Below, one piece after another: positions 2,555-63,981 of a stretch of 64,000 bases of DNA; position 1 is the first letter of the stretch, and each line of letters starts with the position of its first letter. The position numbers and the translations under genes are program-made. The notes beneath the pieces are model-generated. The model was not told the DNA's origin, ran no database searches, and saw only the letters and a program-made list of their open reading frames with translations. The stretch comes from Oscillospiraceae bacterium (GTDB lineage Bacteria > Bacillota > Clostridia > Oscillospirales > Ruminococcaceae), in the NCBI GenBank assembly GCA_004557855.1, contig SFFJ01000007.1:1933-65932 (forward strand). The letters run 5' to 3'.

Positions 2555-2644
2555 TGGCGGAGATGGAGGGATTTGAACCCTCGCGGCACTTTCGCACCCT
2601 ACTCCCTTAGCAGGGGAGCCCCTTCACCACTTGGGTACATCTCC
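2555..2644 (-). tRNA. tRNA-Ser (anticodon GCT)
   Basis: The reverse complement reads GGAGATGTACCC...CTCCC-CTGCTAA-GGGAG...GGTTCAAATCCCTCCATCTCCGCCA. It has a long variable arm, an encoded CCA and anticodon GCT. Confidence 0.85.
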
Positions 2645-2672
2645 AAGGGCTACGAATTCTGTCGGAGGTGTT

Positions 2673-2759
2673 TGGCGGAGAGGATGGGATTCGAACCCAT
2701 GGCTCTGACGAGTCACCGGTTTTCAAGACCGGCTCCTTAAACCGCTCGGACACCTCTCC
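2673..2759 (-). tRNA. tRNA-Ser (anticodon TGA)
   Basis: The reverse complement reads GGAGAGGTGTCCGAGCGG...CCGGT-CTTGAAA-ACCGG...GGTTCGAATCCCATCCTCTCCGCCA. Anticodon TGA, long variable arm, CCA encoded. Confidence 0.85.
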
Positions 2760-24756: not shown

Positions 24757-25551
24757 TCAGGAAAGCAGGATACGGTCGTTGGCAAATTCCTCGGCGGTGG
24801 AAAGGGTAAAGGCGTGCAGCAGGTCGTCTACCGTCAGGCGCTTTTTCTCCTCGCCGCTGATATCCAGAACGATCTTGCCGGCATTCATCATAATCAGCCG
24901 GTTGCCGTGGGCGATGGCGTCCTTCATATTGTGGGTGACCATCAGCGTGGTCAGCTTTCCCTCCTCAATAAAGCGGTCGGAAAGCTCCAGCACCTTGGCA
25001 GCGGTTTTGGGGTCCAGGGCGGCGGTGTGCTCATCCAGCAGCAGCACCTTCGGCTTTTTCATGACGGCCATCAGCAGGGTAAGCGCCTGCCGCTGCCCGC
25101 CGGAAAGCAGCCCGACCTTGGAGGAAAGCCGATCCTCCAGCCCCAGGTCCAGCTCCGAGAGAAGCCGGCGGAAGGTCTCACGGTCGGTGGGGGAGATGGC
25201 CCACTTGAGTCCCCGGCGTTCGCCGCGGCGGGCGGCCAGCGCCATATTTTCTTCGATCCACATATCGGCGGCGGTACCCATCATCGGGTCCTGAAAAACA
25301 CGGCCGAGAAACCGTGCCCGCTTTTCCTCCGAAAGATGGGTAATATCCTCCCCGTCGATGGAAATGCTGCCCTGATCCACCGGGAAGGTCCCGGCGATGG
25401 TATTCAGCAGGGTGGATTTGCCCGCCCCGTTGCCGCCGATGACGGTGACGAAATCGCCGTCATTCAGGGTGAGGGAAAGCCCGTCCAGCGCAATTTTCTG
25501 GTTGACGGTCCCGGGGTGAAAGACCTTGCGGATATTTTCCAGCTTCAGCAT
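24757..25551 (-). CDS. ABC transporter ATP-binding protein (COG1101-type, uncharacterized transport system)
   Basis: Walker A GGNGAGKST, signature LSGGQRQ, Walker B LLLDEHTAALD. RBS AAGGAGG before ATG 25551. Confidence 0.8.
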   Translation of the reverse strand: MLKLENIRKVFHPGTVNQKIALDGLSLTLNDGDFVTVIGGNGAGKSTLLNTIAGTFPVDQGSISIDGEDITHLSEEKRARFLGRVFQDPMMGTAADMWIEENMALAARRGERRGLKWAISPTDRETFRRLLSELDLGLEDRLSSKVGLLSGGQRQALTLLMAVMKKPKVLLLDEHTAALDPKTAAKVLELSDRFIEEGKLTTLMVTHNMKDAIAHGNRLIMMNAGKIVLDISGEEKKRLTVDDLLHAFTLSTAEEFANDRILLS

Positions 25552-26453
25552 ACGGCGGAACCTCCTTTGGCGTGATGATGGGCAGTCCACTTTTTACGCA
25601 GGTAGGGGAGAGCCAGGAATATCGTCACCACCACAGCCGAGAACAGCTTGAGGTCGGTGGTGGAAAGCCCCGCCCAGATGACGATGGCCAGAATGAAGTA
25701 GTAGGCCACGGCGCCCAGTGCGGTGGTCAGCAGCCGCAGGGCAAAGTTCTTGCGCTTGCCCAGCAGTGCCTTGCCGATGACGACCGCCGCCAACCCGATG
25801 ACGATGGCGCCGCGCCCCATGTTGATATCGGAATTGCCCTGATACTGCGCCAGCAGCCCGCCGGAAAGCCCGACCAGCCCGTTGGAGATCATCAGTCCCA
25901 GCACCTTCATGCGGTTGGTGGAAATGCCCTGCGCGCGTGCCATATGCTCATTGTTGCCGGTGGCCCGGATGGCGCAGCCCAACTGCGTACCGAAGAACCA
26001 GTACAGCAGCAGGACGATCGCCACTACGAAAATACCGCTGACGATGATGGCGGTGGGCACCTTGGCGCTGGTAAGCAGCAGCTTATACTGGGTGCGGCTG
26101 ACGGTCAGATTGCTCTTGCCGCCCATGATGTGCATATTGACGGAATAGAGCGCCAGCTGGGTAAGAATACCGGAGAGGATGGCCGGGATGCCCAGAACGG
26201 TATGCAGCAGCCCGGTGCACAGCCCGGCAATGGCACCCGCCAGCACCGCAAAAAGCAGGGCAAGCAGGGGGTTCATCCCGCCGATGATGCACACGGCGGC
26301 GACGGCGCCGCCGGTGCAAAGGCTGTTATCGACCGTAAGGTCGGCGTAGTCCAGTATCTTATAGGTGATGGCCACGCCGATGGCCATGATGCCCCAGATA
26401 AGCCCCTGTGCAAGGGCGCCGGGCAGCGAATTGAGCAATGCGATCGGGTTCAT
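25545..26453 (-). CDS. ABC transporter permease (COG4120-type)
   Basis: 302 aa polytopic membrane protein located between the substrate-binding protein and the ATPase genes. Confidence 0.7.
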   Translation of the reverse strand: MNPIALLNSLPGALAQGLIWGIMAIGVAITYKILDYADLTVDNSLCTGGAVAAVCIIGGMNPLLALLFAVLAGAIAGLCTGLLHTVLGIPAILSGILTQLALYSVNMHIMGGKSNLTVSRTQYKLLLTSAKVPTAIIVSGIFVVAIVLLLYWFFGTQLGCAIRATGNNEHMARAQGISTNRMKVLGLMISNGLVGLSGGLLAQYQGNSDINMGRGAIVIGLAAVVIGKALLGKRKNFALRLLTTALGAVAYYFILAIVIWAGLSTTDLKLFSAVVVTIFLALPYLRKKWTAHHHAKGGSAVC

Positions 26454-26484: not shown

Positions 26485-27453
26485 TTATTGCAGCGCTTCG
26501 GGGATGGTGATGCCGAGGTCGGCGGCCACCTGCTCATTGATGACGAGGGAGAGGTTGCTGACGTCAAAGAAGAAGATGGGGGTGGTGGCGGGGTCGGCGC
26601 CGTTGACGAGGATATTGAAGGCCTGCTCGCCGGCTGCACGACCCAGCTCGTAGTAGCTGATGGCATAGGTGGCAAGGAAGCCGCTGTCACACATCCCGCC
26701 CTCGCCGCAGATCACGGGCTTGCCGGCCGCGGTGGTGATGTTGCTCATGGTGGGGACATTGGAGGCGATGAGGTTATCGGTCGGCTCATAGAAGGCGTCC
26801 ACCTCATTGCAGGCGGCGGTCACCACGGTCTGGATCTCATTGGTATCGGCAACGGTGTAGATCTTGACGGAGAAGCCGGCGGCTTCAAAAGCGGTCTTGG
26901 CTTCCTCTGCCTGGATGGCAGAGTTTTCCTCGCCGGAATTGATCACGATGCCGACCGTCTTGACGGTGGGGCAGAGGGTCTTCATCAGGTCGACCTGTAC
27001 ATTGACGGGGTTCATATCGGAGGCGCCGGTCACATTGGCGCCGGGGGCCTCATTGCTGGCGACCAGCCCGCTGGAAACATAATCGGTAACGCTGGTGCCG
27101 ACGATCGGGATATCGGAGGTAGCCTCACGGGCGGCCTTTACGGCATTGGTGGCGTTCGCCATGATGAGGTCGACCTTGGCAGCAACAAACTGGTTGACGA
27201 TGGTGGTGCAGTTGGTCTGCTCACCCTGTGCATTCTGCACGCTGAACTGTACCCGGTCCCCCAGCTTTTCGGTGAGGAACTCTTGGAAGCCGCGGGTGGC
27301 TTCATCCAGGGCAGGGTGCTCTACCAGCTGGCATATGCCAATCTGGAATACCTTTTCATCGGGGTTGACGGGGGTGGGCTCATTGCCGCAGGCAGCAAAG
27401 CCGGCGACCATCAAACAGGCGGCAGCAGCCGCAAAAAACTTTTTGCATTTCAT
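26485..27453 (-). CDS. ABC transporter substrate-binding lipoprotein (ABC_sub_bind / COG2984-type)
   Basis: Lipoprotein signal MKCKKFFAAAAACLMVAGFAAC-GNEP. RBS AAGGAGA. The track N-terminal extension (MARPAAG...) lies in the T-box leader and is not coding. Confidence 0.75.
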   Translation of the reverse strand: MKCKKFFAAAAACLMVAGFAACGNEPTPVNPDEKVFQIGICQLVEHPALDEATRGFQEFLTEKLGDRVQFSVQNAQGEQTNCTTIVNQFVAAKVDLIMANATNAVKAAREATSDIPIVGTSVTDYVSSGLVASNEAPGANVTGASDMNPVNVQVDLMKTLCPTVKTVGIVINSGEENSAIQAEEAKTAFEAAGFSVKIYTVADTNEIQTVVTAACNEVDAFYEPTDNLIASNVPTMSNITTAAGKPVICGEGGMCDSGFLATYAISYYELGRAAGEQAFNILVNGADPATTPIFFFDVSNLSLVINEQVAADLGITIPEALQ

Positions 27454-27544
27454 GGTATTTCTCCTTATCTTGAATGGGTTGATTTTTTTATCTATCTGCA
27501 CCCCTGCGGCCGGCCGTGCCATAAGGGGAACATTCGGGAAAACA

Positions 27545-27800
27545 AAAAAGCCCTGTCTTTCCGGACTTCTCTCCGGAAAAAACAGGGGCGATAAAGGCTA
27601 TCGCGGTACCACTCTGCTTCGGGCCTCTCTTGCGGGAAGGCCCCTCATTGGGCAGCTGTCACTGTCCGCACGATGTAACGGTCGAACCCGGCGCAGCCTA
27701 CTCTCACGGGGGAGGTGTTCGGTGCGCGGCTACCGAAAGGTACTTCATCCGTCCTACTCATCATTGCCTTGCAGCATCCGGCAACTCTCTGCAGATTTTG
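27545..27800 (-). promoter_or_regulatory. T-box riboswitch leader with terminator/antiterminator, upstream of the ABC transporter operon
   Basis: The minus-strand RNA contains GCAGAGAGU (GA/K-turn motif), the conserved T-box sequence AGAGUGGUACCGCGAUAGCC (plus 27596-27615) and an intrinsic terminator CCCUGU-UUUUUCCGGAGAGAAGUCCGGAAAG-ACAGGGCUUUUUUG (plus ~27556-27600). A candidate promoter TTGACT-17-TAAAGT lies on the minus strand near 27845-27875. Confidence 0.7.
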
Positions 27801-28183
27801 GGGCGGGTTACTTTTTTCCGGTCATCGCCTGTCATTTATGATGGTTGTACTTTAGCACTTTTATGCGGCAAAGTCAACAGCTTTTTTAAAGTTTTTTTGC
27901 GTTTTGGCATAGTGGGGGGATTTTCGGCAGGCGGCAGGCCGGTTTTGGGTAGAACGCACAAATTCCGGTGCAAAATCCGGGCGCCGGCAGGGGGCCGGTT
28001 GCATTACGGCAGCAAAGCGGGTACAATAGTGACAGACCGCTGCAAGCCGCAGGTGAGGGGGCCCCGCCCCCTGCGCCCGCAGGGCGCAGTCCCCGCCTTC
28101 GGCGGGGCGGCCCGGCTCCGCCGGGCCGGGCGGGGCCCCGCATCCCGCCGCCTGCACGCAGCCAAACAGGAAGGAGAAAACCG

Positions 28184-29044
28184 ATGGGAAAGATCGTGAT
28201 CGTAGGCTCCGGGCCTGCCGGGTGCAGCGCCGCGCTGTACGCCGCCAGAGCCGGCATGGAAACAACGTTGATCAGCAAGGGGATCGGCGCCCTGCAAAAG
28301 GCGGAGCAGATCCAGAACTATTACGGCTTTGAGGAGGGCATCACCGGGGCGGAGCTGTACCGCCGCGGGGTAGCCGGCGCCCAAGCGGTCGGAACGCAGT
28401 TTGTCACGGCGGAGGTCGTGGGGCTGGACTACGCCGCCACGCTGGTGGTGCAAACCACCGCAGGGGACTACCCCGCCGATGCGGTGATCCTGGCGACCGG
28501 AACGGGGCGCATCGCCCCTAAAATAGCGGGCCTGGCCGAGCACGAGGGGCGCGGGGTCAGCTATTGCGCCACCTGCGATGCCTTTTTCTACCGTGGCAAA
28601 ACGGCGGCGGTGCTGGGCACCGGGGAATACGCCCTGCACGAGGTGCAGGCGCTGCTGCCGCTGGCGGGAAAGGTCATCCTGTGCACCAACGGCGAACCCC
28701 TGACGGCCGAGTTCCCCGCAGGGGTGACCGTCTGCACCGAAAAGCTGGAGGCCATCGAGGGCGAGGAAACGGTAACGGCGCTGCGGTTGGCCGGCGGTGG
28801 GCTGCTGCCTGCGGACGGTCTGTTTGTGGCGCTGGGTGTAGCCGGCAGTGCGGCGCTGGCCCGTAAGCTGGGCGCCCCGGTGGAAAACGGCCGCATCGTC
28901 GTGGATGAAAAAATGCAGACCGGAATACCGGGTCTGTTTGCGGCCGGTGACTGCACCGGCGGGATGCTGCAGGTTTGCAAGGCAGTGTACGAAGGCGCAC
29001 TGGCGGCCACCGAAGCGATAAAGCAGATTAGGGGGAAGAAATAA
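28184..29044 (+). CDS. thioredoxin-disulfide reductase family flavoprotein (TrxB-like, short form)
   Basis: FAD motif VIVGSGPAGCSAA, redox-active CATC and GDCTGG. 287 aa. RBS AAGGAGA. The track start at 27968 lies in GC-repeat sequence. Confidence 0.7.
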   Translation: MGKIVIVGSGPAGCSAALYAARAGMETTLISKGIGALQKAEQIQNYYGFEEGITGAELYRRGVAGAQAVGTQFVTAEVVGLDYAATLVVQTTAGDYPADAVILATGTGRIAPKIAGLAEHEGRGVSYCATCDAFFYRGKTAAVLGTGEYALHEVQALLPLAGKVILCTNGEPLTAEFPAGVTVCTEKLEAIEGEETVTALRLAGGGLLPADGLFVALGVAGSAALARKLGAPVENGRIVVDEKMQTGIPGLFAAGDCTGGMLQVCKAVYEGALAATEAIKQIRGKK

Positions 29045-29505
29045 TGCAACCCCAAGCATCCGCAAAGCAAAAAACGACGGGAGGGAACGGTATGTGGCTG
29101 GGTCTGGCGCTGCTTTCGGCCCTGTTCGCGGCGCTGACGTCCATCCTGGCAAAGGTGGGCATCGAAGGGGTAAACTCCAATCTGGCAACGGCCATCCGCA
29201 CCGGGGTGGTGCTGCTCATGGCGTGGGGAATGGTCTTTCTGACCAATGCGCAGGGCGGCATTCCCGCCATCAGTACCAAAAGCTGGATGTTTTTGATCCT
29301 CTCCGGACTGGCCACAGGGGCATCCTGGCTGTGCTACTATAAGGCGCTGCAGCTGGGGGAAGCCTGCAAGGTGGTACCGGTGGATAAATTGAGTGTGGTT
29401 TTCACGCTGGTGCTGGCGTTCGTGTTCCTGCATGAAAAATTCACACCGAAATTGTTGATCGGGTGTGTGCTCATCGGGGCGGGAACGCTGCTGATGGTGC
29501 TGTGA
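29044..29505 (+). CDS. EamA-like (DMT superfamily) small membrane transporter
   Basis: Four-TM protein with YKALQLGEACKVVPVDKLS, typical of EamA domains. The true start may be the ATG near 29092. Confidence 0.55.
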   Translation: MQPQASAKQKTTGGNGMWLGLALLSALFAALTSILAKVGIEGVNSNLATAIRTGVVLLMAWGMVFLTNAQGGIPAISTKSWMFLILSGLATGASWLCYYKALQLGEACKVVPVDKLSVVFTLVLAFVFLHEKFTPKLLIGCVLIGAGTLLMVL

Positions 29506-29865
29506 CCAAGTGAATACATCACACCCCCGCCTCGGCAGCAATACCGGGGCGGGGCTTTTGCTGCCCGGGCGGGGCGCTTTCCGCAAGCCCGTGCAGCAGT
29601 ACGGCCCGCAGGGCCGGCCGCCTGCGGCGGCCGTAGGGGGCGGCCGGAGGCCGCCCCCAAGCCCGTCCTGCGGACGGGCTGCCCTGCGGGCCCGCCCCCG
29701 CACAGCAGCCTGCATATCGCAGCCCCCGCTCCGACGTCCCCCACACCCCCATTTAGGAACCCCACATACCCCCGCCCCGGCCCGCACCCCCCGGATTTGT
29801 GCGGTATAGATAAAATAGACCGCCTTTTTTGGGAGGTTTTATCCCCCGAAGCCCTTGCAACCCAA

Positions 29866-29925
29866 CCCGATATAGTGTAATATATATTGTGTAGGTAGAG
29901 GAAATGAGCAACTATATATTGTGCA
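29866..29925. promoter_or_regulatory. two putative NrdR boxes upstream of nrdD
   Basis: The AT-rich palindrome-like sites ATATAGTGTAATATATATTGTGTA and CAACTATATATTGTGC resemble the NrdR operator (acaCwAtATaTwGtgt). Their centers are ~31-32 bp apart. Confidence 0.35.
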
Positions 29926-29961
29926 TGACGGCAAAATACAGGAAAGAGAGGAACAGAGCAT

Positions 29962-32136
29962 ATGAAAGTCATCAAGAGAAACGGCTCCGAGGTGGACTTT
30001 GATATTACCAAAATCATCGCCGCTATCACCAAAGCCAATGACGTGGTGGAGGAAAGCGAGCGCATGACCCCCATGCAGATCCGCCGCATCGCGGAATCGG
30101 TGGATCTTGCCTGCCAGAAGATGAACCGTTCCCCCTCCGTGGAGGAAATTCAGGACCTGGTGGAAAAGCAGATCATGGCCCACGGCGCCTTTGAAGTCGC
30201 CAAGCGCTACATCACCTACCGCTACACCCGCAGTCTGGTGCGCCGCAGCAATACCACCGATGAAAAGATCCTTTCCCTCATCGAGTGCTGCAACGAGGAA
30301 GCCAAGCAGGAAAATTCCAATAAAAACCCGGTGGTCAATTCCACCCAGCGGGACTACATGGCCGGCGAGGTCTCCCGCGATATCACCAACCGCATCCTGC
30401 TGCCCCCCGATATCGTCGAGGCGCATAACGAGGGCATCATCCATTTCCACGATAGCGACTACTTCGCCCAGCATATGCACAATTGCGATCTGGTCAATTT
30501 GGAGGATATGCTGCAAAACGGCACCGTCATCACCGGCACCCTCATCGAAAGACCTCATTCCTTCTCTACCGCCTGCAATATCGCCACCCAGATCATCGCG
30601 CAGGTAGCCAGCAACCAGTACGGCGGCCAGTCCATTTCGCTCACCCATCTGGCGCCCTTCGTGCAGGTCAGCCGGGAAAAGATCCGCCGCCAGCTCACGG
30701 AGGAGATGAAGGAGGCCAACGCCGTCATCACCGAGGAGCAGCTCTCCAATATGGTGGAAAAGCGCCTGCGGGATGAGATCCGCCGCGGCGTGCAGACCAT
30801 CCAGTATCAGGTAGTGACGCTTTTGACCACCAACGGTCAGGCGCCCTTCGTCACAGTATTCATGTACCTCAATGAGGCCAAGAACGAGCAGGAAAAGCAC
30901 GATCTTGCGCTCATCATCGAGGAGGTGCTGCTGCAGCGCTACGAGGGCGTCAAGAACGAAAGCGGCGTTTGGGTCACCCCGGCCTTCCCCAAGCTCATCT
31001 ACGTGCTGGAGGAGGACAACATCTACGAAAACAGCGAATACTACTACCTCACCCGCATGGCGGCCAAGTGCACCGCCAAGCGCATGGTGCCGGATTACAT
31101 CAGCGAAAAGAAGATGCTGGAGCTGAAGGTGGATAAAAACGGCGAGGGCCATTGCTATACCTGCATGGGCTGCCGCAGCTTTTTGACCCCCTACGTGGAT
31201 GAAAACGGCAAGCCGAAGTATTACGGCCGCTTTAATCAGGGCGTCGTCACCATCAATCTGGTGGATGTGGCGCTGTCCTCCGGCGGCAATCTCGAAAAAT
31301 TCTGGAAGATCTTCGATGAACGGCTGGAGCTGTGCCACCGCGCGCTGATGTGCCGCCACAACCGTCTCAAGGGCACCCTCTCCGATGCTGCCCCCATCCT
31401 GTGGCAGTACGGCGCCTGCGCCCGCCTCAAAAAGGGCGAAACCATCGATAAGCTGCTGTACGGCGGCTATTCCACCATCAGTCTGGGCTACGCCGGCCTG
31501 TATGAATGCGTCAAATACATGACCGGCAAGAGCCACACCGATCCCTCCGCCACCCCCTTCGCGCTGGAAGTCATGCAGTACATGAACGCTGCCTGCAGGA
31601 AGTGGAAGGAGGAGCATAATATCGACTTCAGCCTGTACGGCACCCCCCTGGAAAGCACCACCTATAAATTTGCCAAGTGCCTGCAAAAGCGCTTCGGCGT
31701 CATCGAGGGCGTGACCGATAAGAGCTACATCACCAATAGCTACCATGTCCACGTCACCGAGGAGATCAATGCCTTTGATAAGCTGCGGTTCGAGGCGCAG
31801 TTCCAGCATCTCTCTCCCGGCGGGGCCATCAGCTATGTGGAGGTCCCCAATATGCAGCAGAACCTGGAGGCGGTACTGCAGGTCATGCGCTTCATCTACG
31901 ATAACATCATCTATGCCGAGCTGAACACCAAGAGCGACTACTGCCAGGTGTGCGGCTGGGATGGCGAGATCGATATCGTGGAGGAGGACGGCAAGCTCAT
32001 CTGGCGCTGCCCCAAGTGCGGCAACACCGACCAGGATAAGATGAATGTCGCCCGCCGCACCTGCGGTTACATCGGCACGCAGTTCTGGAACCAGGGCCGC
32101 ACGCAGGAGATCAAGGAGCGTGTGCTGCACCTGTAA
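29962..32136 (+). CDS. nrdD: anaerobic ribonucleoside-triphosphate reductase
   Basis: 724 aa with an N-terminal ATP-cone, a Zn-ribbon CPKCG...C region and a C-terminal glycyl-radical motif RRTCGYIG. Confidence 0.9.
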   Translation: MKVIKRNGSEVDFDITKIIAAITKANDVVEESERMTPMQIRRIAESVDLACQKMNRSPSVEEIQDLVEKQIMAHGAFEVAKRYITYRYTRSLVRRSNTTDEKILSLIECCNEEAKQENSNKNPVVNSTQRDYMAGEVSRDITNRILLPPDIVEAHNEGIIHFHDSDYFAQHMHNCDLVNLEDMLQNGTVITGTLIERPHSFSTACNIATQIIAQVASNQYGGQSISLTHLAPFVQVSREKIRRQLTEEMKEANAVITEEQLSNMVEKRLRDEIRRGVQTIQYQVVTLLTTNGQAPFVTVFMYLNEAKNEQEKHDLALIIEEVLLQRYEGVKNESGVWVTPAFPKLIYVLEEDNIYENSEYYYLTRMAAKCTAKRMVPDYISEKKMLELKVDKNGEGHCYTCMGCRSFLTPYVDENGKPKYYGRFNQGVVTINLVDVALSSGGNLEKFWKIFDERLELCHRALMCRHNRLKGTLSDAAPILWQYGACARLKKGETIDKLLYGGYSTISLGYAGLYECVKYMTGKSHTDPSATPFALEVMQYMNAACRKWKEEHNIDFSLYGTPLESTTYKFAKCLQKRFGVIEGVTDKSYITNSYHVHVTEEINAFDKLRFEAQFQHLSPGGAISYVEVPNMQQNLEAVLQVMRFIYDNIIYAELNTKSDYCQVCGWDGEIDIVEEDGKLIWRCPKCGNTDQDKMNVARRTCGYIGTQFWNQGRTQEIKERVLHL

Positions 32137-32235
32137 ACCATCATTCGCCCTAAAAAAAGAGGGACGCTCTGCGGGGCGTCCCTTTGCGGCAGCGGAAAAG
32201 CTGCCGGGTATTCTGCGGGCGGGATAGGAGAGAGC

Positions 32236-32757
32236 ATGAATTACGCAAGCATCAAAAACTGTGATATCGCCAACGGCGAGGGGGTGCGGGTCACACTGTT
32301 TGTTTCCGGCTGCACCAACCACTGCGAAAACTGCTTCCAGCCCGAAACATGGGATTTTAACTACGGGCAGCCCTTCACCCCGGCGGTGGAGGATAAGCTC
32401 ATCGAAATGCTGCGGCCGGGCTTCATCAATGGGCTGACGCTGCTGGGCGGCGAGCCGATGGAACCGCAGAATCAGCGTGCGCTGCTGCCCTTTTTGCGGC
32501 GGGTGCGCAGGGAACTGCCCCAAAAAACCATATGGGCGTTCAGCGGCTTCACCTGGGAGGAGCTGAACACCCCCGGCAGCCACCCCTGCTGCGAGGTCAC
32601 ACCGGAGCTGCTGACCCTGTTGGATGTGCTGGTGGACGGCCGGTTCGTGCAGGCGCTCTATGATATCTCCCTGCGCTTCCGAGGGTCCTCCAACCAGCGC
32701 ATCATCGATGTCCCCCAAACCCTTGCAGCCGGGCACATCGTGCCGTGGCAGGGCTGA
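32236..32757 (+). CDS. nrdG: anaerobic ribonucleotide reductase activating protein (radical SAM)
   Basis: CxxxCxxC radical SAM motif in LFVSGCTNHCENCFQ. Immediately downstream of nrdD. Confidence 0.85.
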   Translation: MNYASIKNCDIANGEGVRVTLFVSGCTNHCENCFQPETWDFNYGQPFTPAVEDKLIEMLRPGFINGLTLLGGEPMEPQNQRALLPFLRRVRRELPQKTIWAFSGFTWEELNTPGSHPCCEVTPELLTLLDVLVDGRFVQALYDISLRFRGSSNQRIIDVPQTLAAGHIVPWQG

Positions 32758-32911
32758 CCGACCATGCGGGCGCCCCTCCGCTGCCTGTCGGGGCACCGCC
32801 CACCCTTACGGGCCGGCGGCACCCCTCCTCCGCTGCGGTGCGCCCGCCGAACAGCATAAAAAAAGCCGGGCAGGCTTTGTAACCTGCTCGGCTTTCGCTT
32901 TTCGGGGGATA

Positions 32912-63906: not shown

Positions 63907-63981
63907 GGCCCGTTGGTCAAGCGGCTAAGACACCGGCCTCTCACGCCGGTAACGCGGGTTCGATTCCCGCACGGGTCACCA
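63907..63981 (+). tRNA. tRNA-Glu (anticodon CTC)
   Basis: GGCCCGTTGGTCAAGCGG...CCGGC-CTCTCAC-GCCGG...GGGTTCGATTCCCGCACGGGTCACCA. Cloverleaf readable. CCA encoded. Confidence 0.8.

Follow-up and report, generated by a model that had tools for sequence, protein, structure and literature searches.

A predicted tyrosine-responsive T-box leader of a three-gene ABC importer operon in an Oscillospiraceae bacterium

Which amino acid is sensed by the T-box leader that precedes an operon of three ATP-binding cassette (ABC) transporter genes in an Oscillospiraceae bacterium, and which substrate does this operon import? The locus lies on the minus strand of contig SFFJ01000007.1 (assembly GCA_004557855.1), within a stretch of 64,000 nucleotides (nt) that was analysed as a whole and is called the window here. 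A sequence-only reading of this stretch, made without database searches, had recognised a T-box and proposed a possible histidine specifier, CAC, which would make the operon a hisXYZ-type transporter. Our analysis points to another amino acid. With a probability of roughly 0.85, the leader is a class I (transcriptional) tRNA-Tyr T-box governing three genes for an ABC importer of tyrosine, or possibly of tyrosine and phenylalanine.

The presence of a T-box on the minus-strand leader, as the sequence-only reading had it, is borne out by the Rfam covariance model RF00230, which matches over its full length with 94.2 bits (E 2.4e-19; curated gathering score, 93 bits). It is the sole element of its kind, as an Rfam scan of the 64-kb window found no other cis-regulatory RNA. 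Close orthologous leaders score between 89.9 and 111.5 bits in the same model, and nine of the 11 related leaders that were scanned reach 97.7–120.8 bits, the remaining two (L001, 89.9 bits; L097, 89.1 bits) lying below 93. Because homologous T-boxes precede ten close orthologues and the operons of four more distant lineages, a chance match is ruled out, and control of the ABC operon by a T-box can be taken as confirmed with hardly any doubt. The T-box sequence that had been picked out by eye, AGAGUGGUACCGCG, was found at 27615..27602 of the minus strand. Pfam matches and the orthologous leaders likewise uphold the claim that a PF04392 (COG2984-type) three-gene ABC operon is under T-box control, which implies import of an amino acid.

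Every element of stem I could be located, namely the K-turn, the S-turn specifier loop (AGUA/GAA), the AG bulge and the distal loop (Table 1). Minimum-free-energy folding of stem I alone is uninformative (z = -0.27, with the S-turn region mis-paired), and its structure was therefore derived from the covariance model and from covariation. In ten aligned sequences from five lineages, 91.3% of the cells are paired and 20 of the 26 pairs have changed on both sides. None of 500 shuffles was as good, and sliding the partners by one to three columns left only 29–50% of the cells paired. The helix closing the specifier loop is 95% paired in these sequences and contains four compensated pairs; nine of the ten aligned sequences, and 14 of the 15 T-boxes overall, have the A-U pair at its inner end. 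A covariance model of our own, built from the stem I alignment, retrieves exactly 15 stem I elements from 98 sources, all of them adjoining orthologous operons on the upstream side; the window scores 113 bits in this model. The motif GCAGAGAGU (27792..27784), which had been taken for a GA motif, turns out to be the AG bulge of stem I, the K-turn being the GAUGA farther upstream.

With the specifier loop placed, the reading frame of the codon has to be decided. The S-turn GAA is followed by five unpaired bases, GUACC, which hold three overlapping triplets, GUA, UAC and ACC, all of them common specifiers. As GAAGUACC is unchanged throughout the window clade (11 members), the close relatives could not resolve the frame. 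A genome scan with the single window protein yielded close relatives only. Distant orthologues were obtained by a search from the nearest 50%-identity representative, which produced binding proteins 56–74% identical to that of the window, and a metagenome scan with the family alignment gave 80 loci, with a T-box only at close relatives and at locus L086. The 3' side of the loop reads GAA-A-UAC-G at L096 (binding protein 70% identical to that of the window), GAA-G-UUC-U at L098 (Alloiococcus sp. CFN-8; 63–68%; T-box L098:1185-1427), GAA-UUC-A at L097 (65%; T-box L097:1193-1443) and GAA-UAC-A at L086 (47%). At L086 and L097 the loop follows the canonical 7-nt order of S-turn, codon, purine and helix, and it reads unambiguously as tyrosine and phenylalanine, respectively. 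The UAC of the window shares columns with these two codons in three independent alignments, those made with the Rfam model, with MAFFT and with our own model. In all 15 T-boxes of the five lineages these columns hold UAC (window clade, L096 and L086) or UUC (L097 and L098), so that U94 and C96 are invariant, the middle base is A or U, and the flanks vary (G or A ahead of the codon; C, U, G or A behind it).

The window loop contains an extra G before UAC and a single unpaired nt (C) between UAC and the closing helix. According to the rule of the T-box database TBDB, in which the '+0' frame comprises nucleotides 2–4 as numbered backwards from where the specifier bulge ends, UAC is in the preferred frame. 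This frame is favoured because it is the only one that uses typical specifiers across the lineages, the only one whose outer positions are invariant, and the only one that keeps a C in the third position. UAC and UUC each represent 0.99 of the specifiers of their amino acid in TBDB (tyrosine and phenylalanine, respectively), and triplets found in the other frames have shares of 0.01 (AUA), 0.01 (AUU), 0.08 (GUU), 0.01 (ACG), 0.06 (UCA) and 0.16 (UCU). T-boxes containing stem II are known to favour C as the specifier's third base. In our estimation the UAC at 27742..27740 is very probably a tyrosine specifier. The triplet GUA, which had been flagged earlier as a candidate, does overlap UAC by two bases but is not itself placed as the specifier. 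At the other end of the leader, the UGGU of the T-box bulge fits a discriminator base A73, and tRNA-Tyr carries A73. No gene for tRNA-Tyr, tRNA-Val, tRNA-Thr or tRNA-His lies within the 64-kb window; the tRNA genes it contains are two adjoining tRNA-Ser genes (GCU and UGA; 2555-2759, minus strand) and one tRNA-Glu gene (CUC; 63907-63981, plus strand).

The substrate-binding protein encoded by the first gene of the operon provides evidence from the side of the transporter. Solved relatives of this protein in the PF04392 family are 3LFT (SP1069 of Streptococcus pneumoniae), 6HNI (CD0873 of Clostridioides difficile) and 3LKV (VC_1101 of Vibrio cholerae), which bind tryptophan, tyrosine and phenylalanine, respectively (PMC6816091). 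In CD0873, Glu263 forms a hydrogen bond with the tyrosine hydroxyl and is replaced by Ala in the tryptophan and phenylalanine binders, and Tyr279 excludes tryptophan and is replaced by Gln in the tryptophan binder (PMC6816091). Pairwise and multiple alignments both equate these two residues with E251 and Y267 of the window protein, and 84 of 87 relatives have the Glu/Tyr pair. The position of Gln284 of SP1069 is occupied by Tyr in the window protein, which scores 274.2 bits against the TrpX equivalog (NCBIfam NF041285), below the cut-off of 390. Judged by these residues, the binding protein is of the tyrosine type; such a pocket agrees with a UAC specifier and speaks against valine, threonine and histidine.

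Several observations weigh against a tyrosine T-box. The leader exceeds the gathering score of RF00230 by only 1.2 bits. Its specifier loop is non-canonical, since an extra G splits the S-turn GAA from UAC and the codon is followed by C, at a place where a purine is normally conserved; an extra base between S-turn and codon is also present in L096 and L098. The five bases GUACC include the commonest valine specifier of TBDB, GUA (0.61 of valine specifiers), and the commonest threonine specifier, ACC (0.60 of threonine specifiers), and sets of valine/isoleucine and threonine/serine triplets look coherent across the lineages when the other two frames are read. The structure of the genetic code makes all three frames look coherent, and for this reason such coherence is no evidence for any frame; it was dropped as a weak test, and triplet typicality and position invariance were used instead. 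In the transporter, the E251/Y267 pair is identical in the orthologues that are under UUC (phenylalanine) T-boxes, and the pocket consequently cannot separate tyrosine from phenylalanine in this clade. Covariation between specifier and pocket, by which Ala would be expected in place of Glu251 under phenylalanine T-boxes, was rejected, the orthologues keeping Glu251. From its residues, the transporter may accept both tyrosine and phenylalanine.

Among the other readings of the loop, a valine T-box with an operon importing branched-chain amino acids would use GUA (27743..27741), directly after the S-turn GAA. It gains from the fact that the codon adjoins GAA in the loops of L086 and L097 as well, that L098 would then read GUU, likewise valine, that UGGU is compatible with A73, and that the Pfam family of the permease is named for branched-chain amino acid transport. 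However, this frame would give AUA at L096 and L086 and AUU at L097, each about 0.01 of isoleucine specifiers, its first position varies between G and A whereas U94 and C96 are invariant, and the preference for C in the third position is broken. Moreover, the binding protein is a PF04392 member with an aromatic, tyrosine-type pocket and not of the LivJ type, and we regard a valine T-box as very improbable. The same low standing is given to a threonine T-box with ACC (27741..27739), which abuts the closing helix. The cmscan alignment leaves the next U unpaired, which would bring ACC into the '+0' frame of the TBDB rule, and this frame yields threonine or serine in all five lineages. Yet the closing A-U pair, present in nearly all of the T-boxes as described above, places UAC in the '+0' frame, the third position in the threonine frame is C, U, G, A and A across the lineages, including ACG (0.01), UCA (0.06) and UCU (0.16), the codon would have no unpaired nucleotide behind it in the two canonical loops (L086, L097), and the pocket is again of the aromatic type.

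The three overlapping triplets, all common specifiers, could also let two or three tRNAs (Val, Tyr and Thr) induce the operon together. The window loop is one nucleotide longer than the canonical one and lacks the conserved purine after the codon, and longer specifier bulges may permit alternative frames according to TBDB, where one case with two codons has been studied experimentally. The overlaps are nevertheless unconserved elsewhere, with AUA/UAC/ACG in L096 and GUU/UUC/UCU in L098, and an aromatic-type binding protein offers no rationale for control by valine or threonine, which makes induction by several tRNAs as improbable as the two single alternatives. A wider possibility, unlikely though less so, is that the GAA-G-UAC-C loop could take more than one tRNA or a non-canonical codon geometry, and that the clade is a natural case of T-box specificity switching, by a single base, between UAC and UUC on a common importer of aromatic amino acids whose pocket has stayed the same. 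Least credible of all is the histidine T-box proposed earlier, in which CAC (27717..27715) would be the specifier and the operon an importer of the hisXYZ type. Bacterial tRNA-His has C73, whereas UGGU would pair with A73; TBDB omits the discriminator criterion for histidine. CAC is the usual histidine specifier (0.95 in TBDB), and hisXYZ ABC operons controlled by a T-box(His) have been described in Firmicutes (PMC9413887). The GAA-CAC-C context (27720..27714), though, had been assigned to the 3' side of stem I, and the Rfam alignment puts GAACACC in the 5' half of stem II, within the S-turn of that stem and outside the specifier loop. Among seven orthologous leaders, CAC has become CAU in L001, L005 and L006, and a deletion has removed the stretch from L007. 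Given this location and these changes, CAC cannot be the specifier; covariance model and stem I covariation fix the specifier loop elsewhere, with UAC in it, an outcome that the sequence-only reading had itself named as a refutation, and the pocket of the protein is of the tyrosine type.

In the 3' part of the leader, the strand 27588..27582 is common to the antiterminator, as its 3' strand, and to the terminator, as its 5' strand. The energy computed for the antiterminator in its canonical structure is -4.9 kcal/mol, against -23.1 kcal/mol for the terminator hairpin. A weak antiterminator thus faces a strong terminator with a U tract, which makes termination the default state. The long terminator was missed by a simple terminator scan with its own loop and stem limits and is revealed by folding; equivalent terminators occur in L007, L002, L096, L098, L097 and L086. 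The hairpin that competes with the antiterminator had been correctly recognised by the sequence-only reading, but not its tail, which is not U7: CUUUUUUGUUUU consists of six U, one G and four U. The UGGU of the T-box bulge (27611..27608) is placed to pair with the ACCA 3' end of a tRNA. At the 5' end, a promoter scan of 27400..28000 found one promoter-like site only (mean of shuffles, 0.3), from which a transcription start at about 27842 on the minus strand can be inferred. The stem III hairpin is kept in the relatives despite changes in sequence, and the stem IIA/B element CGGGUUCGACCGUUA varies among them only at its first C (U in L002-L004, A in L007). A GC-rich hairpin, CCCCUUAUGGCACGGCCGGCCGCAGGGG (27501-27528, minus strand), lies between the terminator and the ribosome-binding site (RBS) and is a possible component of the switch. 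It is present at full length in L001, L006, L007 and L009 and shortened in L002-L004, and L096 has a similar sequence, GCGGCACAGCCG.

In the proposed mechanism, transcription would begin at about 27842 of the minus strand, and the folded stem I would offer its specifier-loop UAC to the anticodon of tRNA-Tyr (GUA). In an uncharged tRNA the ACCA end is free; it would pair with UGGU and stabilise the weak antiterminator, so that the polymerase would continue into the coding region for binding protein, permease and ATPase. If the tRNA is charged, the stronger terminator (-23 kcal/mol and U tract) would form and transcription would stop. Binding of the tRNA and the response to tyrosine limitation are inferred here from the established mechanism of T-boxes.

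Table 1. Coordinates within the window of the leader elements and operon genes (aa, amino acids; bp, base pairs).
Feature	Position	Strand	Sequence, score or basis
Predicted sigma-70-type promoter, TG-extended	27849..27877	minus	TTGACT 27877..27872, 17-nt spacer, TAAAGT 27854..27849
T-box leader RF00230	27581..27834	minus	Covariance model match, model positions 1-219
Stem I	27728..27829	minus	Covariance model and covariation
K-turn	27826..27822	minus	GAUGA; within stem I
Helix closing the specifier loop	27821..27816 with 27738..27733	minus	CCGGAA/UUUCGG; covariation
Specifier loop, 5' side	27815..27809	minus	AAAAGUA; Rfam alignment
AG bulge (AGAGA box)	27791..27784	minus	CAGAGAGU; within stem I
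Distal loop	27779..27767	minus	GGAUGCUGCAAGG; within stem I
Specifier loop, 3' side	27739..27746	minus	GAAGUACC; S-turn GAA, extra G, specifier, then C
Probable specifier triplet (tyrosine)	27740..27742	minus	UAC; predicted partner, GUA anticodon of tRNA-Tyr; alignment columns 94-96
Stem II, with its own S-turn	27691..27727	minus	GAA...AGUA; Rfam alignment
Stem IIA/B element	27676..27690	minus	CGGGUUCGACCGUUA; alignment to Rfam model
Stem III	27621..27644	minus	Rfam alignment and folding
Antiterminator	27582..27617	minus	Helix GCAGAG/CCCUGU (one A.C mismatch), 7-nt bulge UGGUACC, upper hairpin GCGAU..AUCGC
Intrinsic terminator	27539..27588	minus	15-bp hairpin 27588..27551 (CCCCUGU...ACAGGG), then CUUUUUUGUUUU
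Substrate-binding protein, 322 aa	26485..27453	minus	PF04392, 233.6 bits; RBS AAGGAG 27466..27461
ABC permease, 302 aa	25545..26453	minus	PF02653 BPD_transp_2, 100.8 bits
ABC ATPase, 264 aa	24757..25551	minus	PF00005, 102.9 bits; RBS AAGGAGG 25567..25561

The PF04392 protein, the BPD_transp_2 permease and the ABC ATPase are encoded in one operon, contiguous or overlapping, on the minus strand, and relatives share this gene order. The start codon of the ATPase gene (ATG at 25551), chosen partly from orthologues of 264 amino acids, overlaps the stop codon of the permease gene, and the binding protein, with the N-terminus MKCKKFFAAAAACLMVAGFAAC, is a probable lipoprotein. The upstream neighbour, a Pyr_redox_2 oxidoreductase gene on the plus strand, is divergent, and the genes on the downstream side, which code for a short-chain dehydrogenase and an aminotransferase, run convergently, so that the leader and the three genes form one unit. 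On the plus strand at 27968-32136, divergent from the operon, the oxidoreductase is accompanied by an EamA-family transporter (29044-29505) and by the anaerobic ribonucleotide reductase NrdD (29962-32136). Over the same stretch the minus strand carries several long open reading frames without a Pfam match (e.g., 29839-32796, 985 amino acids); such frames, opposite real genes, are probably artefacts that result from a high G+C content.

Control by a T-box is patchy in this family. It is found at L096 (70% identity) but not at L094 and L095 (74%), and L094, L095 and L099-L103 have orthologous operons with the same gene order in which no T-box was found; at 43–54% identity, it is absent from nearly all relatives. 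At L094, the operon has upstream of it a gap of 630 nt beside an nrdD gene, and nrdD is near the operon in the window too. The T-box-less orthologous binding-protein gene of L100 is directly preceded by a tmRNA gene (448-797) and a tRNA gene (1235-1307), the latter with the anticodon loop AUGGCAU and apparently a tRNA-Ala (GGC). Many representatives of the family (P0122-P0133 and others) are proteins of 600-1500 amino acids in which two to five tandem stretches resemble the binding protein, that is, multi-domain PF04392 proteins.

The operon is best annotated as an importer of tyrosine (aromatic amino acids) that would be induced by uncharged tRNA-Tyr, and not as a histidine system. A connection is thereby made between CD0873, the structurally characterised tyrosine binder, and the control of genes by a T-box in a different clostridial lineage. 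With the UUC orthologues included, the clade offers a compact natural series on the change of a specifier and on the tolerance of the loop towards an extra spacer base and a pyrimidine behind the codon. No new mechanism is revealed, the switch being of an ordinary and well-understood type that here would serve a tyrosine uptake system. T-boxes on tryptophan importers of the PF04392 type and on hisXYZ importers are already known, as is the structure of a tyrosine-binding PF04392 protein, and the peculiarities of the locus are modest: the extra base between S-turn and codon, the pyrimidine after the codon and the one-base Tyr/Phe switch between orthologous leaders. A full-text search of the literature for 'T-box' together with 'tyrosine ABC transporter' found no paper.

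The leader of Bacillus subtilis tyrS is the founding T-box and the canonical tyrosine T-box. Compared from established knowledge, canonical tyrosine T-boxes and the window leader have in common the UAC specifier, the S-turn AGUA/GAA, the K-turn, the AG bulge and the distal loop, as well as stems II, IIA/B and III, the UGGN bulge and the competition between terminator and antiterminator. They differ in that the codon of the window leader is set off from GAA by an additional nucleotide and followed by a C, and that the tyrS T-box controls a tRNA synthetase whereas that of the window controls a transporter. Another close system is the tryptophan importer TrpXYZ. SP1069 belongs to the same PF04392 family, and its structure 3LFT is the best match of the window protein in the Protein Data Bank (E 3e-59); in Streptococcus suis, a transcriptional T-box leader likewise precedes the importer operon, as has been shown experimentally (PMC9382623). 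The specifier is UGG and the bulge UGGC in TrpXYZ, in contrast to UAC and UGGU in the window, and the tryptophan binder SP1069 has Gln284 and Ala268 where the window protein has Tyr and Glu. The hisXYZ importers under T-box(His) or HisR are also Firmicutes ABC operons for an amino acid behind a T-box (PMC9413887), but the window has no histidine specifier in its specifier loop and a tyrosine-type pocket. CD0873 (6HNI-6HNK) is homologous to the window binding protein (E 2e-54) and identical to it in both residues for tyrosine specificity, and each of the two is a probable lipoprotein of a three-component ABC system. The C. difficile locus (L089-L092) has the order permease, ATPase and binding protein, and some strains have an additional gene for a binding protein there, whereas the binding protein comes first in the window; in the 760 nt upstream of its permease gene, no match to RF00230 was found. 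Also close to the window are the phenylalanine T-boxes of L097 and L098. They are homologous leaders of orthologous operons (binding proteins 63–68% identical) that agree with the window in gene order and pocket residues, and their specifier has U as its middle base (UUC, phenylalanine) where the window has A (UAC, tyrosine).

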